Virus genome (UHGV): UHGV-1378608
DNA length: 39,780 nucleotides
Reading direction: 5' to 3' (one strand)
Origin: a virus
Below, one piece after another: positions 1-22,120 of the stretch. A program made the translations under genes and the position numbers. The notes under the pieces are model-generated. The model was given only the letters and a program-made list of their open reading frames with translations. It ran no database searches and was not told where the DNA came from. The first letter of the stretch is position 1; each line of letters opens with the position of its first letter.

Positions 1-17
1 AATCATTCCCACTCAAT
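1..17 (+). repeat. Putative attL core (17-bp direct repeat aatcattcccactcaat)
   Basis: Exact 17-bp match with 39764-39780 at the opposite end of the element. Confidence 0.6.
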
Positions 18-94
18 TATTTACGACAAACATAACCAATTGAGTGATAACAACTTTCTCATAACTTACTTCCACCGTACCGTTCTATATACCG

Positions 95-595
95 TCACAG
101 GTTAATGGTGCCCCGCTTTTTCAGTGCGTCATACTGCTGCTCACAGGACTCACCTGCAACCCTATATCGCTCAGCTTCTTCTGCTGTTGCGACGTAAGCT
201 CGGTTGCTTTCTTCAAGCATGTCGGCGAGCACACTGATGACCTTGCTGGCTGGCGTGCCAGTGGGGAAAGTTCCGGTATAGTGTTCGGCGATTCGCTTGA
301 TCTTGTCAAGTTCTGACTGCAGGCGGCCAGAAGAGGCAGCAGCAAAATCAGCATCAGCCCGCGCAGACTCAATACGGGATAGCGCATCACGTTCAATTTG
401 TGTTTTCTCCTTATCTCGTTGTGCCCGGGCCTTATCATCAGCCTGTTTCTGATCTGACTGCGCCTGCGCGTACCCGGCGTCATACTGCCGGTCACCATGG
501 ATATTCCAGGCAACAACGCAACTGATAACCAACGCAGCAAGCATCACGACAATAAGCAACTGTTTCCAGTATGCTTTCACGAATACCCAGATCAT
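95..595 (-). CDS. Rz-like i-spanin (lysis protein)
   Basis: 166 aa; N-terminal transmembrane segment followed by charged coiled-coil-like periplasmic domain; last gene of lysis cassette directly after endolysin; contains embedded lipoprotein ORF in alternate frame. Confidence 0.6.
121..387 (-). CDS. Rz1-like o-spanin lipoprotein, embedded within the Rz-like gene in another frame
   Basis: ORF 121-540 contains an internal start giving [23 protein letters not shown]: positively charged n-region, hydrophobic core, lipobox LAAC, then a Pro/Ser-rich short mature part. Start choice (387 vs 354) uncertain. Confidence 0.45.
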   Translation of the reverse strand: MRYPVLSLRGLMLILLLPLLAACSQNLTRSSESPNTIPELSPLARQPARSSVCSPTCLKKATELTSQQQKKLSDIGLQVSPVSSSMTH

Positions 596-1218
596 AAAAG
601 CACCTTACTGGCGGTGATATACCGCGCGCGCCGGTCATCGATGCCGTTCTGCCCACCATTAATGATCTGCGTGACGCGCACCATATCGCCGGTGTACTTC
701 ATACAGCCCTTGGTGGCGAAGAACCACGCCGCGCTGCGGGCCGCATATTCGTCCTGCGTCAACAGCTCAGGATTCTCCAGCAGGTCCACTTTTAGACCGT
801 TTCCGCAGTCACGATAGTTATTCAAACCGGTAATCTGGATAAGCCCGCGCCCACGGTAAAACCAGCCGTCAGTCGGCCCGTTGTTCCCCATGCGCTTGCT
901 ATACACCAGATTGGCGATCGCACGCTGGCGCTCCAGCGGTAACGATGGCTCACCAGCACGACGGCCCAGCGCATTGGCCTGGCCCTGAGTGAGGCGCCCG
1001 GAACGGACGAATCCCGCCAGCCCGGTCACGCTGTAGTTGAAGTTCTCCTGCAGCCGGGTGAAGCCTCCAGACTCATGCCCGACCTGAGCAATAAACATTG
1101 CCTGATCTTCTGGTTTGCTGATACCAAACTCTTTCATCGCAGAAGTTATATGCGAGAACCAGCGTGCGGCCAGCGCCTCGCTAATACCAGCAGCTCGCTG
1201 GAATTGTTTAATCTCCAT
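592..1218 (-). CDS. Endolysin, glycoside hydrolase family 19-like (chitinase-like lysozyme)
   Basis: 208 aa; motifs [12 protein letters not shown] and [13 protein letters not shown] typical of GH19-type phage endolysins; sits between holin-like genes and the spanin. Confidence 0.8.
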
Positions 1219-1516
1219 GTTTAGACCTCGTTATTTTGAAAATCTGAACGACGTTACCGCGAGTTTTAAGAACCGCAGCAAGCATGACAGCATTGATAAT
1301 GACCTCAGATAAATCCACAGCCATTGGCGTGCGTAACCAGATTGCATAGACGACACGAACAGGAATACTGGCCGCAGCAACAATAAGGAAATAAGCAAGC
1401 CACCCTCCCCACCTTCGATGTTGTGAACCGTTACGCCGGAATGTGACAACACGAATTGCTATGCCAGTACAAATAAGTGCATTGGTGATAAGCAAAACAA
1501 GCTCATTAGTTACCAT
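1208..1516 (-). CDS. Small membrane protein, putative holin or antiholin
   Basis: 102 aa with hydrophobic helices ([39 protein letters not shown]); immediately upstream of endolysin. Confidence 0.5.
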
Positions 1517-1916
1517 CGCCTTTTCTCCCCGGAATTAACTCGCGTGGATTATCGGAACGGTGATAGAGCCAGATGCCAATTCGAACTGCAACGATTGCTG
1601 ACACGAATGCACCAGCAGAGAAAACAATCCCTTTCTCGAAAGAGTCCTGCGTGATGGTAGGGATCAGGCTGGCTACGCCGATAAGGATGGATGCAGTTGG
1701 TTTGTAGAAGAGAAGGCCGCAGAGAAAGCTGAGCATCGACAGGAGAACCCGGCGGCGGATCGGGTATTCGACAGCCGAGGTAACAAAGATTACCGCGCCT
1801 GCCAAAGACCCCAACGCCACTTCTGGCGGGACACCAGCGATTACCGCAGCGAGCGAACCCATACTAAGCCACTGATTTAAAGACTCACTTGTTAGCCCGG
1901 CTGACATAATGACCAC
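1506..1916 (-). CDS. Membrane protein, putative holin
   Basis: 136 aa, multiple predicted TM helices; first gene of lysis cassette downstream of tailspike terminator. Start uncertain (GTG at 1916 or ATG at 1907); a strong SD (taaggagg) at 1937-1944 precedes a 12-codon mini-ORF overlapping the start. Confidence 0.5.
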   Translation of the reverse strand: MVIMSAGLTSESLNQWLSMGSLAAVIAGVPPEVALGSLAGAVIFVTSAVEYPIRRRVLLSMLSFLCGLLFYKPTASILIGVASLIPTITQDSFEKGIVFSAGAFVSAIVAVRIGIWLYHRSDNPRELIPGRKGDGN

Positions 1917-1997
1917 CGTTTACTGTGCATAAAGAACCTCCTTAGTTGGTTCTCATATCATACACAATAAACCATATGTGTTTTAATTTGGTAACAA

Positions 1998-2037
1998 ATG
2001 AAAAAGCCCTTTAGTGAAAAACATTCATTAAAGGGCT
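1998..2037 (-). terminator. Rho-independent terminator-like hairpin after tailspike gene (minus strand)
   Basis: 9-bp perfect stem agcccttta/taaagggct with 15-nt loop, followed on the minus strand by TTTTTCATTTG. Confidence 0.5.
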
Positions 2038-2047
2038 AGATATTTAC

Positions 2048-4792
2048 TTAACCTTTAGAAAAAACAGACAGTAACGGAAGTGTAAAAGTCGACACACCAG
2101 TATTCATCATGCAGGTTTTACCACCTGAGTATCCAGATATGGTTTGCGAAACTGGACTTCCTGTTGTTGGGAAAATGGTGATTTCATCCCCCCCCTTCAA
2201 TACTCTAACTTTGCCTGTAACATCAACCGATGAACTTGAAACAGACGTGAGAGATCCATTGGTCATTGTATAAAAGTTTATAGTTCCTGTTGCTGTTCTG
2301 CTTACACCACATCCTGATTTTTGCTTCTGTTTATAGTTAAACAATACCAGCAGGCCAACAGGCATTGACTCAAGCTCAACTGCTGTAGACTGGTAGGTCT
2401 TACTGCCGTTTCTCATGTCAGGAGCCTCATCATCTGGATCAGAAAAATTATACCCAAGAGTTAAATCATTAACCGTGGCATTATTCCCTGTTATTCCTTT
2501 GACTTGATTAACACTTAACGGTATGTAATTAAACCCTGCAAAAAGCGGTGTTAACTTTTCTCTAAATAAAAGGCCTGGTGGGTATACTAACGAAGGTGTA
2601 CCATCATATGTCACTGAGATAATATTAAGTCCCTTTTTAAGGGTTCCAATGCACGTTGTTTGTTTGCCTGTAAATGATGTTAGCCCATTGCTGGCAACTT
2701 TACCTGATAGATAAGAAGAGTTCCTGATGTCATTGAGAATGACATTGAACTGGTTAACACGATCTGATGAAGTATAAGTTGGGTTATATGGCTCAAATAA
2801 TGTTACAGAGATATCGCTTGTATCACTCCATACAAAATACCGACAAATAACATTTTCATTTGAAGGCGTAATCCTTCCCCATCCACCAAGTGCATCAAGA
2901 TAATCACCTCCACTTAATATCGAAATTGATGGGTAGTATCTGGTATTTGAAGGGTATCCAATACCAATAAATGAAAGTTGCGTAGTAGGGATTAGGTTCT
3001 TATTTTTTACAGCTGTATAAACGCGCTCTTTTAATACCTCTTTTGCAGCATAAGCACCGATGTATGCATGTCCTATCGTTGATGGATGGCTCTGGTCAAA
3101 GACAGTACCGCCGTCACGTTTGGCAACATCAGATATAGAGTACGCGCCTATATCTGCATAAGCGTCAGTCGTGGCAATGGACAAATCCAAAAACTCGACC
3201 TTTGGGAAAAGGCGTTCGATACGCTTCTTAATGGCTGACTCCAGGAAAGCCTTTGGCGCATCGTTATTGTTTACAGTAACAAAGCATATCGGACAACCAT
3301 ATCCCCATGATTTTCTAATCAACTTTTCAAACTCATGAAAATACGCTTCAAATCCTATTGTTGGAAGTATTCCATTGTCATTAAAACCAAGGCTTATAAA
3401 AAGAACATCAGGAGCTTTTTTTCCATACGCAGCATTCTGGAAAAATCCATAGTCGAAGTTTTCATAACCCCAACCTGTCGCAAGTGACTTGCCAGACGAT
3501 CCGCAGTTATATGCTTTAAAAATATTATCCGTGCTGTCGGATAGCATATTGAGGCAATCAGTAAAAATTCTGAACCATGAATGCTTACCGCCATTTAAAT
3601 TATGATTGTAGTTGGTAGAGTTAAGATTTCCATCGCTACCAGTCGGGTTCGGGGTCCATCCTGAACTATAGGCTCCATCCGTTATAGAATCACCAATGAT
3701 ACCTACATGGCAATCTTCTACAGTTGATGGGTAACCCTGCTTATTTGCAAATTTAGCAATTGTTCCAAGAGCAGTAAAATCAGGGCCATTGTTAGATAGC
3801 CCAACATCAAAAACATGCTCATTACCCCATTTGTCTCTTGTGAGAATTTTACCTTCTCCAAGAAATTTAGTCACATCATCTGACGGTAAAAAATTACACC
3901 TGATGGTTACATCTTTTGGGATGTAAATCTGACCAGGGAAAGCATAAATTGCACTTCTGTTGTCAGTTGTCGTGTTAATAACGACATTTGGAACATAAAA
4001 TATTGACGTTGCGTCAGTTCTATATTGTCCGTTAACAAGCTCAGATCTGAGAACCGCATCCCCAACACCTCTCCAAGCGCCAGGACCAACACCACCAGTA
4101 GTGGTAGGAGTTGATCCTGGAGGAACTACTTTGGGCAGTGGCCCGTCCCATCTGTAGTATTCGCCGTTGCTTTCCCAGAGAAGAACATCGTTAAGATAGA
4201 TGATGGTATTACCCAACTCAAAAGATTTCTTCGTGTTATAGCCATACAATCCATTTTCTAAGGTTTCAATAATGGTGCTAAGTATGGTACTAAATTTTGC
4301 ATAAAGATCATCAGTATATTTTTTTGTAGCAGCATCTTGGGGAAGAGATGGATCACGAAGATTTCTAATATAATTTGAAAGCGCGTCATAAAAAATTGCT
4401 ACGTCATTTGGCTTTCTTAAAGCCAACTTATCATTTCTTAATGATTGTTGAATGAGCATAGTAAGTTTATCAAACGCATCCTCATGTACCTCAGCGAAGA
4501 ACTTACCCTGATTACGTAAATCCGTTTCCTGAGTAGCTGGTAGTTCTCGTGATATAGATATCTGATGACCGTTAGCCAACGCCTTCGAGAGAATTACATT
4601 ACCGCCGTTATATCCTCCAGCCCCGGTAACTGTGTAATCAGTATCAAGAGCCAGCACAGCGATATTTTCGTCAAGGTCAACCACCTGTACTACCAGATCA
4701 GATTTATTGAAAACCCTAAAGGTGTACGGAAATGATGTCGTAACGCCGTTACCTGTGTATTCGTTGTGGTCAACTTCGGTTGAGACCGTCAT
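2048..4792 (-). CDS. Tailspike/tail fibre protein with internal SGNH(GDSL)-type esterase domain
   Basis: 914 aa; N-terminal ~120 aa resembles the conserved podovirus tail-fibre anchor domain (NEYTGNGVTTSFPYTF...TDYTVT...AEVHEDAFDKLTMLIQ); residues ~360-585 carry SGNH blocks GIIGDSITDG, FISLGFNDNG and DQSHPS (Ser and Asp/His of catalytic triad). Confidence 0.8.
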   Translation of the reverse strand: MTVSTEVDHNEYTGNGVTTSFPYTFRVFNKSDLVVQVVDLDENIAVLALDTDYTVTGAGGYNGGNVILSKALANGHQISISRELPATQETDLRNQGKFFAEVHEDAFDKLTMLIQQSLRNDKLALRKPNDVAIFYDALSNYIRNLRDPSLPQDAATKKYTDDLYAKFSTILSTIIETLENGLYGYNTKKSFELGNTIIYLNDVLLWESNGEYYRWDGPLPKVVPPGSTPTTTGGVGPGAWRGVGDAVLRSELVNGQYRTDATSIFYVPNVVINTTTDNRSAIYAFPGQIYIPKDVTIRCNFLPSDDVTKFLGEGKILTRDKWGNEHVFDVGLSNNGPDFTALGTIAKFANKQGYPSTVEDCHVGIIGDSITDGAYSSGWTPNPTGSDGNLNSTNYNHNLNGGKHSWFRIFTDCLNMLSDSTDNIFKAYNCGSSGKSLATGWGYENFDYGFFQNAAYGKKAPDVLFISLGFNDNGILPTIGFEAYFHEFEKLIRKSWGYGCPICFVTVNNNDAPKAFLESAIKKRIERLFPKVEFLDLSIATTDAYADIGAYSISDVAKRDGGTVFDQSHPSTIGHAYIGAYAAKEVLKERVYTAVKNKNLIPTTQLSFIGIGYPSNTRYYPSISILSGGDYLDALGGWGRITPSNENVICRYFVWSDTSDISVTLFEPYNPTYTSSDRVNQFNVILNDIRNSSYLSGKVASNGLTSFTGKQTTCIGTLKKGLNIISVTYDGTPSLVYPPGLLFREKLTPLFAGFNYIPLSVNQVKGITGNNATVNDLTLGYNFSDPDDEAPDMRNGSKTYQSTAVELESMPVGLLVLFNYKQKQKSGCGVSRTATGTINFYTMTNGSLTSVSSSSVDVTGKVRVLKGGDEITIFPTTGSPVSQTISGYSGGKTCMMNTGVSTFTLPLLSVFSKG

Positions 4793-4896
4793 GTTAAATC
4801 TCCAGATAGTCGCAGCACCCGTTGCGCCGCATATCTGGTTATTCTATTACCAGAAAAACCATATATGGATATATAGCTCATGAATACGAACAGATA

Positions 4897-4911
4897 TTAC
4901 CTTTCAGGTGA
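4897..4911 (+). promoter_or_regulatory. Operator-like palindrome TTACCTTTCAGGTGA (TTACCT-N4-GGTAA family, 1 mismatch)
   Basis: Member of a recurring inverted-repeat motif; lies about 40 bp upstream of the LexA box. Confidence 0.4.
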
Positions 4912-4948
4912 TTCGCAAAACGTGCTGGATAGCAAACAAATTATTTGC

Positions 4949-4968
4949 TACTGTATATTTATACAGTT
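4949..4968 (+). promoter_or_regulatory. LexA (SOS) box TACTGTATATTTATACAGTT
   Basis: Perfect CTGT-N8-ACAG with AT-rich centre, near-identical to the E. coli consensus TACTGTATATATATACAGTA; 20 bp upstream of the ATG at 4988, with GGAGA RBS at 4975-4979. Confidence 0.75.
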
Positions 4969-4987
4969 ATTGCTTGGAGAAGATAAG

Positions 4988-5245
4988 ATGCAGCAGTATC
5001 ACTATCCACTGGAAGACGGATTTACCGAAAGGATTCACACGCCGGGAGGCGTCAGGTCACTGGTGGAGGGATCGCACTTGATGAAATTACTCCGGGCTCT
5101 CGATAAGGATGGATTTAATGTCGATGGCCCACTTGCCGAACTGACTGCACTGATTAACTACGTCACCAGCTCACAGATGTCTATGCAGGATCTGCAAACA
5201 CATCTCGACTATTGTGCCGAACAATTACGAAAACAAATCAGGTAA
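4988..5245 (+). CDS. Small LexA-controlled moron protein (85 aa), candidate SOS-inducible antirepressor
   Basis: In-frame internal ATG of ORF 4880-5245 preceded by RBS and LexA box; the ORF-track start at 4880 would place the LexA box and RBS inside coding sequence. No confident family match by eye. Confidence 0.5.
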   Translation: MQQYHYPLEDGFTERIHTPGGVRSLVEGSHLMKLLRALDKDGFNVDGPLAELTALINYVTSSQMSMQDLQTHLDYCAEQLRKQIR

Positions 5246-5252
5246 ATTTAAG

Positions 5253-5268
5253 GGCCGCGAAAGCGGCC
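5253..5268. other. GNRA-tetraloop hairpin ggccgc-gaaa-gcggcc
   Basis: 6-bp perfect stem with GAAA loop just 3' of the LexA-controlled gene and 1 nt before the 12-bp palindrome; no strong T-run on either strand. Confidence 0.4.
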
Positions 5269-5269
5269 T

Positions 5270-5281
5270 GTGACATGTCAC
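5270..5281. repeat. Perfect 12-bp palindrome GTGACATGTCAC (copy 1 of 3; 14-bp TGTGACATGTCACA here)
   Basis: Exact palindrome recurring at 22503-22514 and 25578-25589, each in an intergenic position. Confidence 0.6.
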
Positions 5282-5288
5282 ACTCAAG

Positions 5289-5429
5289 CTATGACAAACC
5301 TATGTACCCTGCTACACCAGATAATATCAAAACAACTGCTACAGCAAATTCACCGTCTTCAATGATACATTTACGATTCATAACGCCAAGGGCAACAAGC
5401 ACAAATACAACAAGAATAAAAGCAATCAT
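5289..5429 (-). CDS. Small hydrophobic peptide (46 aa, MIAFILVVFVLVALGVMNRKCIIEDGEFAVAVVLILSGVAGYIGLS)
   Basis: Not in the ORF track (under 60 aa); ATG at 5429 with AGGA 7 nt upstream; two hydrophobic segments; sits right after the 824-aa virion protein gene. Confidence 0.3.
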   Translation of the reverse strand: MIAFILVVFVLVALGVMNRKCIIEDGEFAVAVVLILSGVAGYIGLS

Positions 5430-5438
5430 TTCTCATCC

Positions 5439-7913
5439 TTATTGCGGAGTGACATCCTGTGGTCGCCACCAGTATGTCTGGTTAAACTCTTTCTTCGAAC
5501 GTTGCTCCATTTTACGCAAATAGCCTGGTGAAAAATACTCCTGCATCTGGTTAAAGATCATGTGATCAAGAGCTGCCTTCAAGTACCAGAGATTCGCACC
5601 TGGCATCAGCCCTTTCCCAAGTTTCACCAGATCACCACCAGTCTGCTCGTTCTTCCCTTCCACAGCATTTAATGGTATGCCCTGAGCTATCTTCACTACG
5701 TCATCAACCAGGCCAGCTACCGGGCCAAGCATCGACGCCAGCGCGCCGCTTCCGTATCTAGTGTGATCTGACAATAAAAAGTCACCGTAAAGGCCAAGAC
5801 CACCACCTTTCAGTAGAGCACCAAGCCAAAATTTAGCAGCATCTTCTCCTGTCATCTCGCGAGGATTACGACCAGACGCAAGGTCGTTAAGTTGCTGCGA
5901 CAAAGCGCCAAGAATGGTCGTACTAGCAATAAACGTCGCAATATATGCCGCACGCCCACCAGCAGACGGCATACCCATAGCGCGTGACCAGTGACGCATA
6001 ACCACCGAGATAGGGAACGATTTAAACAGGAAAACACTTCTCGTTAATTCACCTTTCCATGTTCCACGCTGAATACCAGAACCGGTTATCAGTTGCTCAC
6101 GTGCTCCCGGTGTAATAACAGCCATATCAACTTCTTCAGTTACGGCACCGAGCAGTTTACGCATTGCCTCAAATTTCACGCGTTCAGGCTCACCAAGATG
6201 TTTAACTGCTGAATCAGGGATACGCATAATGCTTTCCGGTGTCAGCATCGTATTATTACCGTTCCCCCAGTCCTCCTGTTGCGCCAGCTTCCATACGCTC
6301 CAGTCTGTGTCAGTAATCCCTTTGCTTTTCAGAATACGAAAATCAGAGTCATCGAGGCTACGAAGGTCTGGTGTCCGTGACACTACTTCTCCCAGGCTTC
6401 CCATCATGGTTACGCCATAGGCGCGCTTGTGCGCATCTGACCATGCTGTAAGCCCACTGGCACGCATTACCGCCGTTGCCGCCCAACGAGACACTGACGG
6501 CCCCATATTATCCATCGCCCAGCGGTTAACGCTGCCAAGTAGAGATTCCATCGCCAGACCAGCGCGTCGCGCCCGCGCAAGCTCAGTACGGTTCGTTGGG
6601 TCCATAGCTTCAAGCTGGTTGCGGAATAACTGGTTCATTGGAAGGTTGGTCACCTTCGCAGACAGATACATGGTTCCAAGATCAGAGAACGATGACAGCA
6701 ACGCGGATCCGAGTCTGCTGGCAACCAGCCAGTTGCGGATATTGTCAGACCATTGCGCGATGTGCGGATTCGCTACAGGCTGTGTCTTTCCGGAAATAAA
6801 GTTGTACAGATTCTCTGTGTTGTTCGCCAGCCGCTCGACTTTACCGGTTTTACTCGGGTTAGCTGTTGCCGTTTCTGCCTTAACCTGATCAAGAAGTGAG
6901 CGGAAAACATGATCGGGGTTTGGACCATATGTTTCCACCAGAGAAATATCTTTACTGATACCTTCCAGGTGACCGACCATGATTTCCCATAGAGAGCGAT
7001 CGCCATAAAGTTGTTGATATTGGAGATAGGAATCTGCATCTTTGAAATGTATCTGTCGTGATGCATTACCACGGTTAGCACGTGCGCCGGAAATTCGCAT
7101 TCCGGTATCAGTAAGCTTATTCAGCCCACCAGTAGCGATCGTGTTATAAGCCTCTCCAAGAAATGCAGACAACTCGGCATCGTTCATCAGTTGTCCATCG
7201 GATCGGGTATAATATTTGCGATCCAGCTTACCTATAACATCGCTAACCCACTTATCCTTTGATACCGCCCCAACCTTTTCCATAGAATGATGTTGAGGGA
7301 TCCCCCAGTTTTCGAGATAGCCAATGTCCCCACCAGCATCATTAAACCGGCGGCGCAGCAGCTCTGTAACTTCTCTCCACGCCTTAGCACCTTTTCTTGC
7401 TTTAGCATTGCCAGTATTTTGCCCCCGCATTTCATATACCAGGTCACGTACGCCCGCTTCATCTTCAAACAGACCAAAAAAGCGAGGATCAACTGCTTCA
7501 AATGCCTCCTGCAATTGACTCAATGCATAATCACGAGTGGCTTTTGTTCTGGATTCAACAGAGAGGAAATTCGATTTACCGTCTGCATTAAAAGCAATAG
7601 TACGGTTAAGAGCGCCAAGTTTCCCATCAGCCCCTTGATAGCTATTGATAAATTTATCCAATCTCTGACGTGCGGCTATAGTGAGAGCCACACGACGTTT
7701 CTTTAATGCCGCTTCTCGCTGTAATTCTTCAGATGCCAATTGTGCTGCACGATACAACCGTTCTGATTCGGAAAGTTGTCGCCACGACATCGGGTCATCA
7801 CGAGCAATGGAGCGCATATTTCGATAAATGCGGTCTTCAATGTTCTGTATTTCTCGCGCCGTTAACGTGCGCTGCGCCGCCTGCTGGACCGCTTGTATAC
7901 ATTCCTGTCTCAT
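5439..7913 (-). CDS. Large internal virion/ejection protein (824 aa)
   Basis: Size and position within a run of three large genes downstream of tail tubular genes, as in podovirus internal core/ejection proteins; no catalytic motif recognised. Confidence 0.55.
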   Translation of the reverse strand: MRQECIQAVQQAAQRTLTAREIQNIEDRIYRNMRSIARDDPMSWRQLSESERLYRAAQLASEELQREAALKKRRVALTIAARQRLDKFINSYQGADGKLGALNRTIAFNADGKSNFLSVESRTKATRDYALSQLQEAFEAVDPRFFGLFEDEAGVRDLVYEMRGQNTGNAKARKGAKAWREVTELLRRRFNDAGGDIGYLENWGIPQHHSMEKVGAVSKDKWVSDVIGKLDRKYYTRSDGQLMNDAELSAFLGEAYNTIATGGLNKLTDTGMRISGARANRGNASRQIHFKDADSYLQYQQLYGDRSLWEIMVGHLEGISKDISLVETYGPNPDHVFRSLLDQVKAETATANPSKTGKVERLANNTENLYNFISGKTQPVANPHIAQWSDNIRNWLVASRLGSALLSSFSDLGTMYLSAKVTNLPMNQLFRNQLEAMDPTNRTELARARRAGLAMESLLGSVNRWAMDNMGPSVSRWAATAVMRASGLTAWSDAHKRAYGVTMMGSLGEVVSRTPDLRSLDDSDFRILKSKGITDTDWSVWKLAQQEDWGNGNNTMLTPESIMRIPDSAVKHLGEPERVKFEAMRKLLGAVTEEVDMAVITPGAREQLITGSGIQRGTWKGELTRSVFLFKSFPISVVMRHWSRAMGMPSAGGRAAYIATFIASTTILGALSQQLNDLASGRNPREMTGEDAAKFWLGALLKGGGLGLYGDFLLSDHTRYGSGALASMLGPVAGLVDDVVKIAQGIPLNAVEGKNEQTGGDLVKLGKGLMPGANLWYLKAALDHMIFNQMQEYFSPGYLRKMEQRSKKEFNQTYWWRPQDVTPQ

Positions 7914-7918
7914 TTAAT

Positions 7919-9721
7919 TTAACCTCTCAAGAAACACGCCACAGCAACATCAAACAGGCTGGAATCCTGTATTGCCTGCTCACTTTCCCTGTTCGCTTCA
8001 TCCAGTACTTCACGCGCACTGCGCGATTGTGGATTACCATCATCATCCAGCACGGTGATTATCATGTCCGGAGATTCAAGCAGCGAGTCTTCAGCTATAC
8101 GCAGATCAATATCTCCTGCCGGATCTGCCATCATTTTTTGTTCTGTCTGTTGCAATATCTTACCGGGCTCAAAAGGAGCTACTTCGTCTGGCGTCCTGAC
8201 CTCTGCTGTTTTATAGAATGAAACAGCCTGAGCATTAAGTTCACTTTCTGCCTGCTGTCGTCGTGCCAGTTCTGCTCGAGCTTCAAAAAACTGACCGCCA
8301 GGCTCATGCGGTGCCAACGCGTTACGGGAAAATTCCAGGCGCTCTTGTGCCTGCCGGATTCGTTGGTCAATATCGCGAAGTCTGACCTGTTTATCTGATC
8401 GAGCACGAGACAAAGCTTTACCGCTACCGTTTGGCTCTTCTGCAAGAATTTGTGCGCGCTGTTCAGTGAGATTTTCAATAATTCGTTGGCTATTAGCGAT
8501 TTCAGACTGGTAAACCTGTCTATCGCCACGCGGCAAAAGCTGCGCGGCCTGTTCTTCAAGCAACCGATTTTCTATAGCGCGCGCCGTTACTCCATCATCT
8601 ACAGATGACAGAGCCTCATTAACTGCCTGAGACAGCAGACTCTTGCGCCCAGGAATTTCACTGAAAGATGCAGACTCAACAATGCTGGCAACGTCTACAG
8701 GTCTCCCCTCGCTAACATCAGACATAGCTTTTCTCAGAGCCTGAATGTGAGAATTGCGCGAAAGCACGTTGATCGGCACGCCGGGCGCAATATCAATTTC
8801 AGCATGATGAGCGGCATTCGCCGCCAGTGCAGCATCAACATCAACTGGTGAAAAATTTGCTGCGTTTGTAGACTCGCCGCGAGAGTTAATAAATCTGCCG
8901 ACACCACCAAACGCCACCCCAAGAACAGCATCAATAGCAATTGCCTGTCGATCCAACACATCATACTGGTTAGCCATTTCGCTATAGCCACCATCACGAA
9001 GCGTTTTTGCAGTAAGCCCACGCTGTGCCATACCGAACGCAATATTTGTACCTGCGGCATAGGCAATATCTGGCGTTGCACGTACTGCTGTTGCTGCGGC
9101 GCGTCGCACTGAACTCTCACCCGTCCGCGCAAGCTGAGCCGCCACACCTTCCGCCAGCGCACCACCAGCACGTAACCCGAGGCTCATAGGGATCAGTGTT
9201 CCGGCACCAGCAGTAATGCCCTGCACTAATCCCGCTTCCTGCGCCGTCCTGAAATCAACACCCTGTGCTGTCAGCCGTTCAAACTCAGAAAAACCCTGTA
9301 GCGAAGTTACCGCCGCTGCACCTCCGACAGGACCACCGAGCGTTGTACCGACAACAGCCTGCCCGCCCATATCGAACAACCCATAAAGAACCTGCCCGGC
9401 GGTTCCGGTTGTCGCGGCATCAGGCGTCAGCTGCTTAACCTGCTGCTCTGCTAGTTTTCTCTGCTCGGCAATGTATGAAACTGAAGTGTCATTGAGCGAG
9501 GTGTTTTCGTTAACAAACTGAGCAATCGGGGATACGATTTTATCCATCCCTGCCCAGAGCAACTGATCTGGCTTTGCCACCAGCCCGGAGTACAAACCAG
9601 ACAATGCCGCTCCTACAGCATTGTCGAAAAAACCAACATCGCTGTTAAAACCAGCTGGATTTGATGCTGCTTCGTCAAGCTGCTGATTCTGGTTTACTGG
9701 ATTAAGGCCAAAGTAACTCAT
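7919..9721 (-). CDS. Internal virion protein (600 aa), Ala/Gly-rich
   Basis: Position in core-protein run; long Ala/Gly-rich segments and a charged coiled-coil region. Confidence 0.5.
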   Translation of the reverse strand: MSYFGLNPVNQNQQLDEAASNPAGFNSDVGFFDNAVGAALSGLYSGLVAKPDQLLWAGMDKIVSPIAQFVNENTSLNDTSVSYIAEQRKLAEQQVKQLTPDAATTGTAGQVLYGLFDMGGQAVVGTTLGGPVGGAAAVTSLQGFSEFERLTAQGVDFRTAQEAGLVQGITAGAGTLIPMSLGLRAGGALAEGVAAQLARTGESSVRRAAATAVRATPDIAYAAGTNIAFGMAQRGLTAKTLRDGGYSEMANQYDVLDRQAIAIDAVLGVAFGGVGRFINSRGESTNAANFSPVDVDAALAANAAHHAEIDIAPGVPINVLSRNSHIQALRKAMSDVSEGRPVDVASIVESASFSEIPGRKSLLSQAVNEALSSVDDGVTARAIENRLLEEQAAQLLPRGDRQVYQSEIANSQRIIENLTEQRAQILAEEPNGSGKALSRARSDKQVRLRDIDQRIRQAQERLEFSRNALAPHEPGGQFFEARAELARRQQAESELNAQAVSFYKTAEVRTPDEVAPFEPGKILQQTEQKMMADPAGDIDLRIAEDSLLESPDMIITVLDDDGNPQSRSAREVLDEANRESEQAIQDSSLFDVAVACFLRG

Positions 9722-12231
9722 TGCGGAATATCTCCGGAGAATCTCTGACGCTTCTGTGTCAGATCAAGAACAACGGGAGAACCATCATCTTTTAGCAGAT
9801 AACCAGTACCAAGTTTCACCAGGTACTGACTATCGCCGTAACTTTGCAAACCATACTGACCAGGCGGTGTTTTTATCCCTGTGCCAACAACTTGTTCATT
9901 CCAAGCCTGATTAACCTGCTTATCGAATTGCTCTGCAGACATTCCCCACGGCAAAAGAACATTCCCCATTCCGTTATAGTCATGCACGCCACCTGTAGCT
10001 ACGTTAACAGCCTGTTTCCAGATATCATTGTCAATTTCGCCTGATACCACGCCTTTTTTCGCCATCACACCAGCGTAATAGTCCTTTGCGATCTCGTATG
10101 CCATTGATGCCCCCTGAGCATCACCAGCAAATGCATCCTTCACCATGTCAGAAAACTCAAGGCGAAGATCAGCATCTTTAGGCATCGGAATACCTTTCGC
10201 GTCATCAGTACCTTTACGAGCCGCCGCGCCAGCAAGAATTGTCTGCGCAGCGGTTTCAGGAGACACGGAAACATCCGGATTAAACCAGTTTTTTTCTGCC
10301 AAAATACCACCTGGCTTATCCATCAGTATCCCGGCAACGGCAGCAGATGGAGCGTTGGCACTGATCTGCTGTAGTGCTGACATATACACCTGCCCACCAC
10401 CAGTGCTCTGCCTGATGGTATCGAGATATGCTGCCTGTTGGGAAACGGGCGCATCACGAAAGAAAACACCGATCTGATTGGCCTCGTCTTTGGAAAAGAA
10501 CGTCAGTGGAGTGCCATATGACTTAGCAAGGTCACTGACCTGAGCAGCACGCAAGGCAACGCTCTGTCCAAAGTTATCCTTATTGCTCATGTCGATAGGC
10601 TTTGCCTGTCCGGCGGCAAGAGAGAACTGTACAGGATCAGCCTGTCGCTGCTTTATCACCTGACTTGCAGCCGACACAACGTTGTCATAAAGAGCGGCTC
10701 GTGCCGCATAACCCTCCCCTGTCTCACCAGTATCCGGGCGTAATTGCTCAACATATGCTGTAATGCTGCTTGTCGGCATGTTGCGGAAAGAGCCTATATA
10801 CTGTCCGGCGATTTGCGTATTTCTGAACTCGGTATATCGCAGGTTTCCTTCTCTGACTCCATAAGCTGCAATAAAATCAGCCTCACCAGGTGGGTTAGGA
10901 AATTCAACGCCACGCATATACGCAGCTGTCGCATCGCGAACCTGGCTGTCAATCATCGTTTTATATTCAGCCTGCTGCTGCCGACGCAGTTGATCCGCCT
11001 GTCGCATAAAACTTGCCTGCGCCTCAGAAGATGCCGCATCGAATGCTGCATTACCGGTATAGCGTTTGGTGTTGGTTGGAATTGTTGATAAACCAAGTGC
11101 TGCACTGACACCAGCAGTTAACTGCTGATCACTGTATGGCTGGCTACCGTTCTCATGATGGATAATGGCTGCACAAAGCGCCTTCAGGGTATCAGGATTA
11201 GATGCATCGAGAGGCTCATCAGCAGAAACGCCAAGTTGTTCGCACACTGCTTTGATATACGACATAGTGTCATTTTTATCAGTAGGCGGTGCCCAGCGAT
11301 TAATTATCTCGCTGACGGTATCGATACCCTGCCGCTGATACGACATCAGGTTACGCCCTAATGCACGAATCCCGTGCTCAGGTGTTTCGAATTTAGCAAA
11401 TCGACCATCATCACCGGTCTGGCCTACCCACGGATTAGTTTTGCTGTATTCGAGATTTCCTGGGTTATTGTTGCGTATGCCACGGGCACGCTCGGAAGAG
11501 TCACTATCTGCTACAGCACGGCGAGCTCCAGCAGCAATATCACTTAACTCGCCATTACTTTGGATGAATGCGGTCGCATTGTTTGCCGACCACTGGGACA
11601 ATGCGGCATCAGCAACCTTCTCTTTAAACTCGATTTTCTTGGCCTGTATTTGCTCGTCGCTCCAGCCATGCGCAATGCCATAATCCTCAATTTGCTGGAA
11701 AGTTTGCTTATTAGCCAATACGTATGCGGCGTTGTCGCCATACAATGCTGCGGCATTTTTACCATTGTTCAGCAGCGTCGCCTGAAACTGGCCTTCTTCG
11801 TAGGCATTTATTTGCCCTATCTCGTGCCGCCCGGCCTGCATAGTGAACTGAATACGCTGCTGCTGCGCCTGCTGCATGAAAGCATTACGAGCCTGTTCAT
11901 CCGGCAGCGACATAGCCAGTTGTTCGACCTGAGCATCAAACTGCTGCGTATACTCATGGCCTTTTCCAATAGCATTTTTCCCTTTCAGGTTAAGCAATCC
12001 TGTTTCAGGATTATTCAGCAGATCGCTGCTTATCTGACTGAGGTTAAGAGATGCCTCCTGAGCCAGAGCGATATTGGCACGCTGTTTTGCCTGCCCCAAA
12101 ACATCAATTGCCTCTGTCCCTGCCCGAACAAAAGCATCACCAATACCTTGCTGAGAAAACGTCTGCAAGCCTGCTGACTGAACTCCACGACTCTCAACCT
12201 GACGTCCGGATACTGTTGGTACGACTGGCAT
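9718..12231 (-). CDS. Internal virion protein (about 837 aa), possibly with a cell-wall-interacting domain
   Basis: ORF 9718-12306 with likely true start at Met 12231 (ATGA overlap with upstream gene); contains motif GIRNNNPGNL...RWAPP that I tentatively recall from virion-associated proteins, not verified. Confidence 0.5.
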   Translation of the reverse strand: MPVVPTVSGRQVESRGVQSAGLQTFSQQGIGDAFVRAGTEAIDVLGQAKQRANIALAQEASLNLSQISSDLLNNPETGLLNLKGKNAIGKGHEYTQQFDAQVEQLAMSLPDEQARNAFMQQAQQQRIQFTMQAGRHEIGQINAYEEGQFQATLLNNGKNAAALYGDNAAYVLANKQTFQQIEDYGIAHGWSDEQIQAKKIEFKEKVADAALSQWSANNATAFIQSNGELSDIAAGARRAVADSDSSERARGIRNNNPGNLEYSKTNPWVGQTGDDGRFAKFETPEHGIRALGRNLMSYQRQGIDTVSEIINRWAPPTDKNDTMSYIKAVCEQLGVSADEPLDASNPDTLKALCAAIIHHENGSQPYSDQQLTAGVSAALGLSTIPTNTKRYTGNAAFDAASSEAQASFMRQADQLRRQQQAEYKTMIDSQVRDATAAYMRGVEFPNPPGEADFIAAYGVREGNLRYTEFRNTQIAGQYIGSFRNMPTSSITAYVEQLRPDTGETGEGYAARAALYDNVVSAASQVIKQRQADPVQFSLAAGQAKPIDMSNKDNFGQSVALRAAQVSDLAKSYGTPLTFFSKDEANQIGVFFRDAPVSQQAAYLDTIRQSTGGGQVYMSALQQISANAPSAAVAGILMDKPGGILAEKNWFNPDVSVSPETAAQTILAGAAARKGTDDAKGIPMPKDADLRLEFSDMVKDAFAGDAQGASMAYEIAKDYYAGVMAKKGVVSGEIDNDIWKQAVNVATGGVHDYNGMGNVLLPWGMSAEQFDKQVNQAWNEQVVGTGIKTPPGQYGLQSYGDSQYLVKLGTGYLLKDDGSPVVLDLTQKRQRFSGDIPQ

Positions 12232-12776
12232 TATAATCCTCCGGGTAATCTGGTTCCTGCTGCTGCCACGATTGGCGCAGGAGTGCTTTGAGTAAACGGA
12301 CTCCACGTCCCACCAAACATCTGGTACGCACCGTATGCCTTCAGAGGCGCAGTGAGCAATGTTGTTGCTGCTCCCACATTCCCCTGTTTACGGGCTGAAC
12401 TGGCTTCTGCTTTATAGTTGGCAGCCTGAACCTGATAACCGTAAGCCTCGCGTTGCGCGTTATTCACCGTCGTCAGCGAATCAAGAGCGCCAAACTGAGC
12501 AGTGTCACCAAATATATCCAGCGCATTACCGGTAGATAAATCAGCGCCGGTAGCCCCCATTGTCGCCGCCTGTGTACCAAGCCGCTGTCGAGTCTCTCTG
12601 CGCCGTTGCTCAGCTTCAGCGTTACCCCTGTTTATTGCATCATTTGCCTGAGCTGTGGCTATATCTGCGTTCGCTTCTGCAGCCGTCGAGGCATACTTTC
12701 CCTGTTGGTACTGGGTGTATGCCTGAATGCCACTCATGGCGAGCATTGCGCCACCAGCAATAACCGGATCGCACAT
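12231..12776 (-). CDS. Internal virion protein (181 aa), Ala-rich
   Basis: Size and position analogous to small internal core protein of T7-like structural modules. Confidence 0.45.
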   Translation of the reverse strand: MCDPVIAGGAMLAMSGIQAYTQYQQGKYASTAAEANADIATAQANDAINRGNAEAEQRRRETRQRLGTQAATMGATGADLSTGNALDIFGDTAQFGALDSLTTVNNAQREAYGYQVQAANYKAEASSARKQGNVGAATTLLTAPLKAYGAYQMFGGTWSPFTQSTPAPIVAAAGTRLPGGL

Positions 12777-13240
12777 TATTTTCTCTCCATGTGAAATCTG
12801 TGGAAATTAAGACCAAGTGCACCATAAGGCGCGGCTTCTTCAAGCCTGAATCCAAGCCAGTGCAGCCATGCTTTGGCAACATGGTTTCGCTCATCGACAT
12901 AGTTTTCCAGGCGCGGATAAACTGCCAGCATCTGCTGCAATACAGGGCGGCAGTGGCGCAGAAATGTCTTCTGATATTTTTCAATACGGCTGGTCCCGAC
13001 CAGCCAGGGCGTACCATTGCCACCGATCATTGACGCCGGAGATACGCCAAACATGGTTGCCAGTTCTCCGTTCGCGAACCCTGACCAGGCCATAGTCGCA
13101 GTGCGCAGACCAACACGCAGCGCATCTTCGGTAGTCATCAGCGATACCGCATACAGTTCGTCAATATCAGCCTGACGAACATCCGGCAAAATCATCTGAA
13201 GATGCTCTTCGGTAGCGGGAATAATTTGAACGTCGATCAT
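12776..13240 (-). CDS. Hypothetical virion protein (154 aa)
   Basis: Translationally coupled (ATGA overlaps) within the structural operon. Confidence 0.45.
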   Translation of the reverse strand: MIDVQIIPATEEHLQMILPDVRQADIDELYAVSLMTTEDALRVGLRTATMAWSGFANGELATMFGVSPASMIGGNGTPWLVGTSRIEKYQKTFLRHCRPVLQQMLAVYPRLENYVDERNHVAKAWLHWLGFRLEEAAPYGALGLNFHRFHMERK

Positions 13241-15711
13241 CAGAATCCCCCAACAGTAAGGCGAGGAATAACGGCAAGAACAGACAGCGGCAACGGGTCA
13301 AGCTGACGGATTTTTACACGTCCGTTTTTGCCCCAGTTACTGTCAAGTTTCACTTCTACTTTTCCGGTAGCATCATCAACAGGATCATCGTAGAACTCGA
13401 ATTCACGCTGTGGATATTCGTACCATTTACCGCCGGGCGTAGTCGCCCAGATGCCGCGACTGGCATTCACAACCAGAGTAACGGACGGGTTCACCTGTTT
13501 TTTGTCCAGCAGCGTTTCCTGTCCGTTAATGTTGATATCCAGTGTTTCGAATTCAGCAGTTATTGGCAGGCCGATGTGCACTACAGCCCCCGGAGATTCC
13601 AGCGTGACGGCACCTCCGGAAACCACTTTCTGTGGTTCCACGTTCGCATCAGAGAGAATGTTTACGGTCTGGCCTTCAAGATGAGACAGGCCTCCAAATG
13701 TCCGGCGCGCCATCTGCCAGTTCGTGGTGGCCACATTCCTGAGGGATGGCGGGACGTTCCTGTTGGCACGAACCACTACAGCGGTATTGCTGGTTACAGA
13801 AATAATGTCGCAACGTAATTCTTTTGACACTTCATCGCCAGTATCAGGAACAGTTCCGGTATAAGGGAACTGTAGTTGCGCGCCGACATCACTACTGGTG
13901 AAGTACGCACCACCAGAAACACTGATTGTATATTCCGCACGGTAATCCCATTCACCAGAACCACCAGTGATGGTCATCGTTCTGTCAGACGTATTTCTTC
14001 CATCATAGCTAAGGCCAGAATCAACAAAGAAAGCATCTTCATCGCTGGTAAATAAACGGCTGGACAGTCTCTCGATGTATCTCACTGTTTTCCCGTTAAC
14101 GGTTCGGTTAACGACGAAATACACCGCATCTTCATTGCCTTCGCTGATACTGCATGTGCTTTCATATTTTCCGGTACTGGATTGTGGTGCCCATGCAAAA
14201 ACCTGCTGATCACGCAAATAGGTCATCACCAGTAATTTACCGTCATCACGAATGCAGAAGGCGCTGGAGTAAGGGACAATCGAGAAGCACCAGTCAACAA
14301 TGCTGTGCTTCTGAAAAAGATGATTGGCAAGGATGGTCAGGTCGTTCCCCTGATAGCCGTCAACATCGAATGAGTAGGCCAGATCACGGACAACACTGCC
14401 TTTCTCCTGGACGAACAGAGCAATATTCGCCACGGCAATTGGTGGGACATTGCTCGAGCCATTTGATCCCTGAGAGCTGAATGCAAATGATGATGGGGTA
14501 AGCACTTTGTTCTGGTCGCCAGTGATGACGTACTCACCTCCGGAAGTCAGCGCCACCAGCGAACCAACATCAATCAGGTGACGGATCTCATTAACCTGAC
14601 GCCCGGCATAGGTGTAGATAATTCTGTCGTCATCCTGCGTAGGATTGCTTTTGCCAAAATCCTTATAATCCCCGGTACGGCTGGCCCAGATAGTCTGAGG
14701 GAACGCAGTCGATGCGGCGAAGTAAAGGCGTTGTTGATAATAAACAACAGTGCCAGGATAACCGTTAATACTGTTCCAGGCATATTTAGCCCATTTATAG
14801 CTGGCATTATCCTCGCCAACTACCTGCGAAGGGATATAGGAAATCACCTCGGCAGTTGCAGTAGTTCCATTTGCAGCAGAGATACGGGCAATGCCAAAAC
14901 CACTGTGCAGATACTCCCACTCAATGCCGGTATCATCATCACCGGATCCGCCCCAGCCATCCCATGATGTGCCTTCTGTATGCGAAGGGCGCAAAGTGCC
15001 TGTTTTGCCTGCTGTAACGGCGCGATAGTAGTTACTGTCTGCACGGCGAATATCGCCAATCGACGTACTCTTACTGGTTTCCCATACCGGCACAGAATCC
15101 ACTGCAGGCTGTTCCAGATAGAACAATTTGCCTACCTGCTCCGCGCCAAAAATTGAGGCGCTTGCCGTTAACGTAATTGTCCCGGTGCTGGCGCTGGCAT
15201 AAACCGTCACTGACTCGTCAATATTGATATCTTCAAATGGCCCGTTCTTCGTTACCACATCAACCAGTTGCCAGTTGTCATGCGCATAGCGGCGCAACTC
15301 TTTCGGCGGGTATGCCGGGTGAACCAGCGTAAGCACGTCTGCGCTTTGCGTGAATTTAATTCGGAACAGATCGGCTTCAGTATATGGCGTGGCAATTTCA
15401 TAAATAACATTGCTGCTGTTCAGCACCAACGCACCATCTTTGATAACGCGCATGTACTGGTGTCCGAACTCCAGAGCGTAGGTCTGAACCGTCGAGAACT
15501 GGAACGGGATCAGGCGGCATTTCCGATTTGGGTATTTGGCGGCACCGACAAAACGCGTACCAGGTCGATTCTCAACGCCGCCATACTGCCGCACGATAAA
15601 GTTATCGCACTTGCGCAATGCCACCTGGTACTTCGCCATGTCGATACGACCGTACAACGACGGTCCAATCTCACCACCGGCAAAGCTGGGCTGGATCCAA
15701 CTGATAGCCAT
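13240..15711 (-). CDS. Tail tubular protein B-like (nozzle), 823 aa
   Basis: Size (about 800 aa) and position immediately after a roughly 200-aa protein mirrors the podovirus gp11/gp12 pair. Confidence 0.5.
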   Translation of the reverse strand: MAISWIQPSFAGGEIGPSLYGRIDMAKYQVALRKCDNFIVRQYGGVENRPGTRFVGAAKYPNRKCRLIPFQFSTVQTYALEFGHQYMRVIKDGALVLNSSNVIYEIATPYTEADLFRIKFTQSADVLTLVHPAYPPKELRRYAHDNWQLVDVVTKNGPFEDINIDESVTVYASASTGTITLTASASIFGAEQVGKLFYLEQPAVDSVPVWETSKSTSIGDIRRADSNYYRAVTAGKTGTLRPSHTEGTSWDGWGGSGDDDTGIEWEYLHSGFGIARISAANGTTATAEVISYIPSQVVGEDNASYKWAKYAWNSINGYPGTVVYYQQRLYFAASTAFPQTIWASRTGDYKDFGKSNPTQDDDRIIYTYAGRQVNEIRHLIDVGSLVALTSGGEYVITGDQNKVLTPSSFAFSSQGSNGSSNVPPIAVANIALFVQEKGSVVRDLAYSFDVDGYQGNDLTILANHLFQKHSIVDWCFSIVPYSSAFCIRDDGKLLVMTYLRDQQVFAWAPQSSTGKYESTCSISEGNEDAVYFVVNRTVNGKTVRYIERLSSRLFTSDEDAFFVDSGLSYDGRNTSDRTMTITGGSGEWDYRAEYTISVSGGAYFTSSDVGAQLQFPYTGTVPDTGDEVSKELRCDIISVTSNTAVVVRANRNVPPSLRNVATTNWQMARRTFGGLSHLEGQTVNILSDANVEPQKVVSGGAVTLESPGAVVHIGLPITAEFETLDININGQETLLDKKQVNPSVTLVVNASRGIWATTPGGKWYEYPQREFEFYDDPVDDATGKVEVKLDSNWGKNGRVKIRQLDPLPLSVLAVIPRLTVGGF

Positions 15712-16316
15712 CAGGACAACCTCGCAATGGTAAACTCGTCAACCGGTGGCTGTGGTTCCTGTGATTCATTCTGGCTATGCGAGCCAGCACTAAGAATCAC
15801 GCGATTGTACATATTGAGGGCAAACGTACCGAGGTCTGCATTCCCAGTCAGCGCCATGTTAATAGCTGCCGCAAGACGCCAGGCCAACGCCTCCATAAAA
15901 ATGGCATCAAACATGTTCACATCTGAAACGCGAGAGACATACTTGAGCCATGCCTGCGGCTGGTCTGTGTAGATCAACTTTCCTGTTCCGTTGGTGTCTG
16001 CACCAACTTCGTACTGAACGCGCATTGCTGCTGTTGGATTGCGTACACCAGGAAGCATAATTTCAGTAATGCGCAGACAATCGGACGGGTACTGGTACGC
16101 ATATTCCCAGTCAGGCGGTGGATTGCTCGTATCTGCAAGCGCCACGCGTTTGGTAGCAAAGTTCCAGTCAAAATCAGAAAGCACAGCATCACGGCAGGCC
16201 TCAAAGTGCAGCGAACATTCCCCCGCTTCCTTGCTGGCTTCCGTCAGGCTGTTAATGCTGCGGCTGTTGCCAATATTGGACAGCGCACGATTGCAGATCT
16301 CTACTACAGAGGCCAT
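15711..16316 (-). CDS. Tail tubular protein A-like (adaptor), 201 aa
   Basis: Size and synteny with the following 823-aa gene. Confidence 0.45.
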   Translation of the reverse strand: MASVVEICNRALSNIGNSRSINSLTEASKEAGECSLHFEACRDAVLSDFDWNFATKRVALADTSNPPPDWEYAYQYPSDCLRITEIMLPGVRNPTAAMRVQYEVGADTNGTGKLIYTDQPQAWLKYVSRVSDVNMFDAIFMEALAWRLAAAINMALTGNADLGTFALNMYNRVILSAGSHSQNESQEPQPPVDEFTIARLS

Positions 16317-16645
16317 TACTCACCCCCATTGCCGTACAGAGTTTCAGCCGCTGATTTTTCTACATCACCGGAAACAGGAGCGATTGCCATATCAGTGATC
16401 TGCAGATCGGCGCTGCGATTAACGCCATCGTCAGTTTCTCTGGCAGACAGGCCTCGAATAACAGCCTTTGCAGTTATCATCACTTCTGTTCCGACGCCCT
16501 GAGGTTGCGCCTTCAGCTTATTCAATGTGTCGTTATTCAGCGTGATGCACAGCCCCCATGGGTATTCATCGCGAGTTCTGGTTTCTCCGCTCTCATCCTG
16601 GTAGCTGTCAGTGCCGGTTTTGAGGTTTACGAGTTCCATATACAC
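16316..16645 (-). CDS. Hypothetical head-tail joining protein (109 aa)
   Basis: Coupled ORF within the structural operon between capsid-associated and tail tubular genes. Confidence 0.4.
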   Translation of the reverse strand: MYMELVNLKTGTDSYQDESGETRTRDEYPWGLCITLNNDTLNKLKAQPQGVGTEVMITAKAVIRGLSARETDDGVNRSADLQITDMAIAPVSGDVEKSAAETLYGNGGE

Positions 16646-16689
16646 TCCTGCAATAAAGGGGCCGAAGCCCCTTGTCTGATTCGCGAGGC

Positions 16690-17034
16690 TTACACGCCCA
16701 GTTCTTTACGCTTATCTGCGATCTTCTCGCGGAGCGTTTCAGCTTTGGCGTTATGGTGTGGCTTCTCGTTAAAGAGCAATTCGTACTCTTCACGGAGCTT
16801 ATCCAGTTCACCATCATCTGACACATCGTTGATGATTTTGGTGCTGGTTGCTGCCATTGACACCTTTCCTGCAACTTTTGCTTTTGCCTGTCTGGCTGCA
16901 TCGTTAACAGGTTCCAGTGCGCTACCAGGCTCACCTTCGTATTCGATTTCTGCCCCCTCCGGCCACAGAGTGTTATGGATATGAGAGAGGCGCAGAACGC
17001 GGTATCTTGGTTTCTCACCTGACATCGATATCAC
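16690..17034 (-). CDS. Hypothetical structural protein (about 110 aa)
   Basis: ORF in structural operon; likely true start at internal Met (MSGEKPRYRV). Confidence 0.4.
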   Translation of the reverse strand: MISMSGEKPRYRVLRLSHIHNTLWPEGAEIEYEGEPGSALEPVNDAARQAKAKVAGKVSMAATSTKIINDVSDDGELDKLREEYELLFNEKPHHNAKAETLREKIADKRKELGV

Positions 17035-17035
17035 C

Positions 17036-17473: not shown

Positions 17474-17524
17474 CTTCTTTCTCCATTAGTGGGTCTGTTA
17501 CGACCCACAGGTTAATAACAGGCG

Positions 17525-18517: not shown

Positions 18518-18525
18518 TTCCTCTC

Positions 18526-21196: not shown

Positions 21197-21210
21197 TTCA
21201 ATGACTCCGG

Positions 21211-21417: not shown

Positions 21418-21507
21418 ATCAATGACTCCGTACGCAATTAAATTATTACCAATTTAACCATATATGATTTATTTATCGTAGGTAGTTGACATTTAACGCA
21501 CAAATTA

Positions 21508-21522
21508 TTACCTTTAAGGTAA
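21508..21522 (+). promoter_or_regulatory. Operator-like palindrome TTACCTTTAAGGTAA
   Basis: Perfect TTACCT-N4-GGTAA site in the non-coding gap between the late genes and the tRNA; a TTGACA hexamer lies at 21486-21491. Confidence 0.45.
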
Positions 21523-21922: not shown

Positions 21923-21965
21923 GAATCACGCCTAAGGACCGTGATGCCAGAAGTTCCAGGGGCTT

Positions 21966-22109: not shown

Positions 22110-22120
22110 AAGGTGAGATT

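Follow-up and report, generated by a model that had tools for sequence, protein, structure and literature searches.

The window analysed here is the whole 39,780-nucleotide (nt) stretch of UHGV virus genome UHGV-1378608, and its subject is the tailspike of 914 amino acids (aa) that it encodes. By sequence and by predicted fold this protein is a gp63.1-type esterase tailspike, placed on a new anchor and found in a temperate phage. The spike probably deacetylates an O-acetylated surface polysaccharide, likely the O-antigen, without cleaving the chain (probability about 0.8). Both the class of protein and its mechanism are known, and what is new is the combination with this anchor and the occurrence in a temperate phage. 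The case adds a clean G7C-type esterase receptor-binding module, with precisely mapped junctions, to the temperate epsilon15/phiV10-type podophages. It also lends support to a view now emerging, in which temperate enterobacterial phages often deacetylate their receptors rather than depolymerise them. An earlier note on this DNA had proposed the SGNH esterase assignment and the comparison with G7C gp63.1; these stand, as the gp63.1 structure (pdb 4QNL) is the best match by both sequence and fold and the catalytic residues are conserved.

Domain architecture and likeness to gp63.1

The 914-aa reading frame given in the earlier note was confirmed, and its domains are listed in Table 1. The N-terminal anchor consists, in the AlphaFold model, of a β-rich head (residues 9-82) and a long helical neck (residues 94-179). 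It matches phrog_1640 and related families as well as the tail-fibre N-termini of pdb entries 28lx and 8ck1 (E 2e-25). The SGNH domain is flanked by the domain pair that marks the G7C family: PF21562 (residues 267-330, 108 bits, E 2e-31, cut-off 27) on one side, and PF21988 (residues 611-743, 34.9 bits, cut-off 27), a region that lies inside the alignment with 4QNL, on the other. The C-terminal region of roughly 330 aa that had been predicted behind the esterase domain corresponds to residues 587-914 and is formed from two β-sandwich domains. The last of these, residues 745-914, is likely to be the specificity determinant.

Searching the spike with phmmer against the sequences of the Protein Data Bank (PDB) gave 4QNL as the best solved match (E 1.2e-103, residues 190-744). 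The AlphaFold2 model, built from a 75-sequence alignment, has a mean predicted local distance difference test (pLDDT) score of 84.5 and a predicted template modelling (pTM) score of 0.72, and low confidence is confined to the helical neck (residues 87-164). The structure prediction and Foldseek comparison suggested by the earlier note returned an SGNH-type fold for the model, with matches to SGNH esterases. Against the PDB the top Foldseek match is again 4QNL (E 2.1e-66, template modelling (TM) scores 0.65/0.70, 799 aligned columns for a target of 847 residues), followed by the spikes of Shigella N4-like phages in 9d84 and 9d81 (Moo19/B2 chains). Later, partial matches are to the stand-alone SGNH esterases 4rsh (TM 0.80 of target), 9otv (0.72), 2wao (CE2), 4h08 and 3dt6.

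Foldseek also lists the β-sandwich folds of CBM66, galectin and β-glucanase. The matched residues are absent from its output, and we attribute these matches of the model to the C-terminal β-sandwich domains. Galactocerebrosidase and fructofuranosidase structures appear as well, which together with the β-glucanases could be read as signs of a depolymerase (glycosidase or lyase) in which the SGNH motifs are incidental. Most of the glycosidase matches, however, have TM scores of ~0.1-0.2 under either normalization, and the β-glucanases reach at most 0.37 of target over ~145 columns, equivalent to one domain at most. These partial matches are attributed to shared β-sandwich or lectin modules. No β-helix, lyase or glycoside hydrolase family (GH, or PL for polysaccharide lyases) was found in the spike with Pfam, PHROGs or NCBIfam, and gp63.1, to which the whole of its distal part can be aligned, reportedly leaves the polysaccharide backbone intact (PMC10743462). 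With the structural matches partial and GH and PL families absent the glycosidase reading was rejected, and a depolymerase of any kind is extremely improbable.

Like the window spike, gp63.1 of G7C (Gamaleyavirus, N4-like) has the order Tail_spike_N, domain 3, SGNH, galactose-binding-like domain and C-terminal domain. Identity between the two declines along the chain: domain 3 has 61%, the SGNH domain 38%, the binding domain 27% and the C-terminal domain 12%. Residues 745-914 have no BLASTP match in gp63.1, and only the Foldseek alignment covers this region. Such a decay towards the C-terminus fits a distal specificity determinant, and the values of 38, 27 and 12% suggest that the receptor is probably different. 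The two proteins also differ in how they are carried. gp63.1 attaches via gp66 in a branched complex, whereas the window spike has an epsilon15/phiV10-type N-terminus of its own and presumably attaches directly to the tail. Furthermore, G7C is virulent whereas the window phage is temperate.

The nearest deposited phage proteins are the spikes of the SP6-like coliphages Schulenburg, Snoke, Sciku and Shashou, with 51% identity over residues ~212-909. They share the whole esterase module but differ in phage lineage and anchor, and their annotations read tail spike or fibre and nothing more specific, apart from one that reads endosialidase. Weaker phage matches are to N4-like Pectobacterium phages, Pisces, Penshu1, an Aeromonas phage and G7C. 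Esterase or deacetylase activity has been shown experimentally for gp55 of Pectobacterium phage PP99 and for the spikes of Shigella phages Moo19 and B2, which come from other phage families and hosts. The Moo19/B2 chains are distant from the window spike (11-13% identity, TM 0.3-0.4 in Foldseek).

The SGNH domain and its catalytic residues

The SGNH domain had been placed by the earlier note at 3037-3715 for residues 360-585. These residues correspond to 3038-3715, so that the end was correct and the start one base off. In the AlphaFold model the domain shows the three-layer α/β/α fold of the SGNH superfamily, with five parallel strands (361-366, 425-429, 463-468, 502-506 and 533-536) flanked by helices. 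The GDS of block I lies directly past the first of these strands, and Gly434 and the GxND of block III past the second and third, respectively. The pLDDT of the domain is mostly 82-97, with dips to 72-78 near residues 471-480 and 511-520. GDSITDG, GFNDNG and DQSH were all found where they had been reported; the glycine of block II, within CGSSGK, had gone unlisted.

Conservation was assessed over 30 aligned sequences, gp63.1 included, with 30-96% overall identity to the query. Gly367, Asp368, Ser369, Gly469, Asn471, Asp472 and His569 are invariant in this set, with conservation of at least 90% at Gly434 and Asp566. In the alignment made here, from which the gp63.1 residue numbers are taken, Ser369, Asp566 and His569 correspond to Ser276, Asp470 and His473. 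Ser369 is thus the correct nucleophile for the S369A mutant that had been suggested. That the catalytic positions remain (nearly) invariant down to 30% overall identity points to selection for catalysis. Also invariant are Trp441, Asn445, Asp447, Phe450, Phe451, Asn453 and Tyr456 between blocks II and III, and Leu390, His397, Gly401 and Gly402 in the insert after block I; these may represent family-specific elements of the substrate site or of an interface.

Table 1. Features of the tailspike gene, its surroundings and the phage ends. Positions are those of the window.
Feature	Residues	Window position	Strand	Remarks
Tailspike gene	914 aa + stop codon	2048..4792	-	GGAG ribosome-binding site 9 nt upstream of ATG
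Virion anchor, epsilon15/phiV10 type	1-165	4298..4792	-
Tail_spike_N (PF18668; CBA120 TSP1 / G7C gp66 type)	183-252	4037..4246	-	Pfam 65.3 bits, residues 185-245
G7C gp63.1 domain 3 (PF21562, Gp63_3rd_G7C)	267-335	3788..3994	-
SGNH/GDSL hydrolase domain	360-586	3035..3715	-
Lipase_GDSL_2 (PF13472)	366-576			24.6 bits, cut-off 32.9
Lipase_GDSL (PF00657)	364-579			21.2 bits, cut-off 23.6
Block I, GDSITDG	367-373	3674-3694	-
Block II glycine, CGSSGK	430-435	3488-3505	-
Block III GxND, GFNDNG	469-474	3371-3388	-
Block V DxxH, DQSH	566-569	3086-3097	-
Predicted nucleophile, codon	Ser369	3686..3688	-	invariant, 30/30; aligns with gp63.1 S276
Predicted oxyanion-hole glycine, codon	Gly434	3491..3493	-	at least 90% conserved
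Predicted oxyanion-hole asparagine, codon	Asn471	3380..3382	-	invariant
Predicted acid/base pair	Asp566/His569	3086..3097	-	align with gp63.1 D470/H473
G7C galactose-binding-like β-sandwich (PF21988, G7C_GBD)	600-744	2561..2995	-
C-terminal β-sandwich	745-914	2051..2560	-	most variable part; pLDDT 82-96
Terminator-like hairpin and U-run		2001..2037	-	just past the spike stop codon
Structural genes		5253 onward		97% nt identity to phiV10
Spike anchor and upstream open reading frame		4309-5245		86.8% nt identity to phiV10
Distal part of spike		1987-4308		no match to phiV10
Lysis cassette		1-1986		79.5% nt identity to phiV10
Rz-like DUF2514		95-595		lysis cassette
GH19 endolysin		592-1218		lysis cassette
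Two holins		1208-1916		lysis cassette
Tyrosine integrase		38317-39573

Probable deacetylation and its target

In the proposed mechanism residues 1-165 would dock the spike to the tail, leaving the distal residues ~183-914 as a gp63.1-type esterase module. The two C-terminal β-sandwiches and the groove around the SGNH domain would bind the O-acetylated polysaccharide, most probably O-antigen. Ser369 would be activated by His569 and Asp566, the oxyanion hole would consist of Gly434 and Asn471, and O-acetyl groups would be removed while the sugar backbone stays intact. Repeated binding and deacetylation would make the binding reversible and allow the virion to descend towards the outer membrane in the way that has been suggested for G7C; this would be the part that the spike, presumably a trimer, plays in infection.

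Characterized relatives argue for this mechanism. For gp63.1 it is reported that the E. coli 4s O-antigen is deacetylated with its chain left uncut (PMC10743462, PMC13123978), that infection requires this activity, and that the activity is probably processive (PMC10743462). PP99 gp55 deacetylates the O-polysaccharide of its host, while the Moo19 and B2 spikes are esterases of phages that both depend on O-antigen O-acetylation. Under a grouping rule of 30% identity and 60% coverage (PMC10408124) the window module would fall into the '4s/O22' subtype of G7C. That the serogroup is the same as that of G7C should nevertheless not be assumed, given the unrelated C-terminal domain.

Several points weigh against deacetylation of O-antigen by the spike. 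For the spike itself and for every relative above ~51% identity the activity is assigned by homology. NCBIfam gives no match for the spike, and the generic GDSL models of Pfam score below their curated cut-offs (Table 1). One homologue (P0085) carries Ser in place of Asp566, so that the family does not depend strictly on Asp at this position. The AlphaFold2 model is that of a monomer. The exact protein and a 96% relative were found only on metagenome or draft contigs, the relative for example in the draft E. coli assembly GCA_012449825.2, and an attempt to infer the host serogroup from lysogens gave no assignment. Finally, the identity of the glycan is not readable from sequence, and a capsule or another acetylated glycan may be the target.

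This last point leads to an active esterase spike with a substrate other than O-antigen, such as an O-acetylated capsule (K antigen), colanic acid or another surface glycan. SGNH receptor-binding proteins are reported to be prevalent in Klebsiella prophages, where they are active esterases linked to capsule types, with esterase activity confirmed for two (PMC13123978). Spikes of E. coli with the same anchor as the window spike include endosialidases that target the K1 capsule. On the other side, the characterized esterase spikes named above all act or depend on O-antigen, and the receptor-binding proteins of Uetakevirus generally follow the host O serogroup (PMC10408124). A different glycan is therefore considered unlikely, although it is the most plausible of the alternatives.

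The sub-threshold GDSL scores favour, for their part, a domain kept purely as a binding or scaffold module whose catalysis is unneeded for infection, and some phage receptor-binding proteins do retain enzyme folds for binding alone. These scores come from a divergent subfamily, in which 30 residues are inserted after block I, and a close relative (P0001) likewise has only a faint match to PF13472. The near invariance of the catalytic positions and the requirement for the activity in G7C infection (PMC10743462) both speak against a mere scaffold, which is very improbable.

Mosaic origin, distribution and genome setting

The window amounts to an essentially complete temperate podophage genome of epsilon15/phiV10 type (Uetakevirus), spanning from the lysis cassette to the tyrosine integrase. 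phiV10 and several E. coli phages are 97.7% identical in nt to window 5000-25000 (97-98% in the structural genes). phiV10 and epsilon15 also share the anchor type of the window spike, and the spike gene has the same position as in these phages, upstream of the holins and between the internal/ejection genes and the holin-lysis cassette. No second spike gene was found among the window open reading frames (ORFs) scanned, which were not all of the structural ORFs, nor in the phiV10 map. The protein is best explained as the only receptor-binding tailspike that this temperate, phiV10/epsilon15-like podophage of E. coli possesses. The identical protein is present on 13 public contigs. In one of these the prophage adjoins yfgI/yfgH and ppx/ppk, which we take to be the E. 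coli chromosome; in another, representing the circular or phage form, the integrase comes after Rz.

The spike gene is mosaic in origin. The conserved anchor expected by the earlier note is evident in its identity to phiV10, and the match to phiV10 is lost in the distal part of the spike (Table 1). Judged by nt identity, the whole spike-lysis end of the genome derives from a different lineage than the rest. At the protein level module junctions are seen at residues 183, 252-254 and 267. Over residues 1-252 the window spike is matched at 95% by E. coli proteins that go on with a different GDSL domain. From residue 183 to the end it is matched at 77-83% by proteins of Enterobacter, Citrobacter and Cedecea, and from residue 267 to the end at 87-94% by proteins whose head-binding N-terminus is of P22 type. 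The same distal module is also found on T7-type and tail-collar N-termini. The module travels among Uetakevirus-, P22-, T7/SP6- and N4-like phages and tail-collar fibres, which is useful for host-range prediction and for the engineering of receptor-binding proteins.

The AT-richness noted earlier is real: the spike gene has a GC content of 0.402 (0.32 at third codon positions), whereas the window as a whole has 0.491 and the genes on either side 0.49-0.57. Its use as a sign of exchange of the receptor-binding module calls for correction: the anchor is similarly low (0.406), and the low GC belongs to the whole gene rather than the receptor-binding part alone. Better evidence of exchange comes from the loss of similarity to phiV10 and from the module junctions. 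Deposited phiV10-like and epsilon15-like spikes are annotated, by name rather than fold, with a different distal part (right-handed β-helix, eliminase). According to a 2026 preprint, the epsilon15 spike bears an accessory esterase domain.

With E of at most 1e-30, residues 267-914 match only 43 clusters in a library of 1.84 billion cluster representatives; at 0.001 the number is 129. Full-length matches are nearly all of tailspike-like size (~580-1000 aa), with a dozen or so shorter fragments. The module was not found in the deposited genomes of phiV10-group phages. At megablast level the distal module is present in none of the complete E. coli genomes, and a search in distant mode gave a match of at least 80 nt in only 4 of 5426 of them; four P22-like E. 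coli prophages carry a 50% relative. Close relatives are already annotated in databases as 'SGNH/GDSL hydrolase' or 'tail fiber/spike domain-containing protein'.

Esterase spikes had been described in the earlier note as much rarer than glycosidase or lyase spikes, a claim that is weak here. Product names were surveyed in 60 evenly sampled E. coli genomes with a phiV10-type anchor. Six spikes are named SGNH/GDSL, 13 endosialidase, eight GH28-related and four β-helix; the other 29 comprise 28 with uninformative names and one match without an annotated feature. Esterase spikes as a class are thus not rare on this anchor (at least 6/60). Two of the spikes annotated SGNH/GDSL, WP_001546907.1 (868 aa; locus L007, 5001-7607) and WP_046123179.1 (664 aa; locus L008, 5001-6995), have the same anchor and locus as the window spike without an adjoining oac. 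Beyond the anchor they have no BLASTP-detectable similarity to the window spike, which makes them separate SGNH lineages, at least two further ones. It would seem, then, that this anchor has acquired esterase modules on several occasions.

What phiV10 has in place of the unmatched stretch is a different distal part, together with the O-acetyltransferase gene oac, which confers superinfection immunity and lies between spike and holins (phiV10 14453-15469). The corresponding gap between spike and holin in the window (1917-2047) contains only the terminator hairpin (-16.3 kcal/mol, z -4.7, no equally stable structure in 200 shuffles) and no oac. The gene is also absent from this slot in the 96%-identical relatives and in three other SGNH-spike prophages of complete E. 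coli genomes. No AT3 acyltransferase or Gtr gene was found among 20 window ORFs scanned, a set that did not include every small ORF. In E. coli STEC711 (NZ_CP041416.1; locus L010, 3449-8080) a P22-like prophage carries a gp63.1-type spike that is 50% identical to residues 267-907 and is directly followed by gtr-type glucosyltransferase genes, so that here an esterase spike is paired with glucosylation-based seroconversion.

It is conceivable, though decidedly doubtful, that the esterase module, which on the phiV10 backbone takes the place of both the original distal part of the spike and oac, is a counter-move to O-antigen seroconversion, seeking and erasing O-acetyl marks of which some are written by resident prophages. 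If so, the phage would preferentially enter hosts 'locked' by other phages, and its own lysogen would be left without an acetylation-based exclusion system. The loss of oac at the spike locus is suggestive in this respect, yet it is no evidence for such a counter-move.

Further features of the window were noted beside the spike gene and in the backbone. Divergent from and upstream of the spike is a 121-aa ORF (window 4880-5245, +) without a Pfam match, which is annotated as 85 or 121 aa depending on the public contig and is equivalent to phiV10p24 / epsilon15p19. A small ORF (21544-21819) downstream of the portal (head-to-tail connector) gene is followed by a tRNA-Arg (anticodon TCT, 21846-21922, +), placed between this ORF and a gp49/66-family ORF, an arrangement also annotated for related O157 typing phages. 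A 246-aa ORF (22658-23398, +) in a low-GC stretch (~0.46) adjoins the gene for the large terminase; no family matches it credibly, the single match being sub-threshold and to a plant family. Finally, an MT-A70 family methyltransferase and a calcineurin-like metallophosphoesterase (36996-38314, +) adjoin the integrase, a site at which phiV10 has an adenine methylase and no annotated phosphoesterase.

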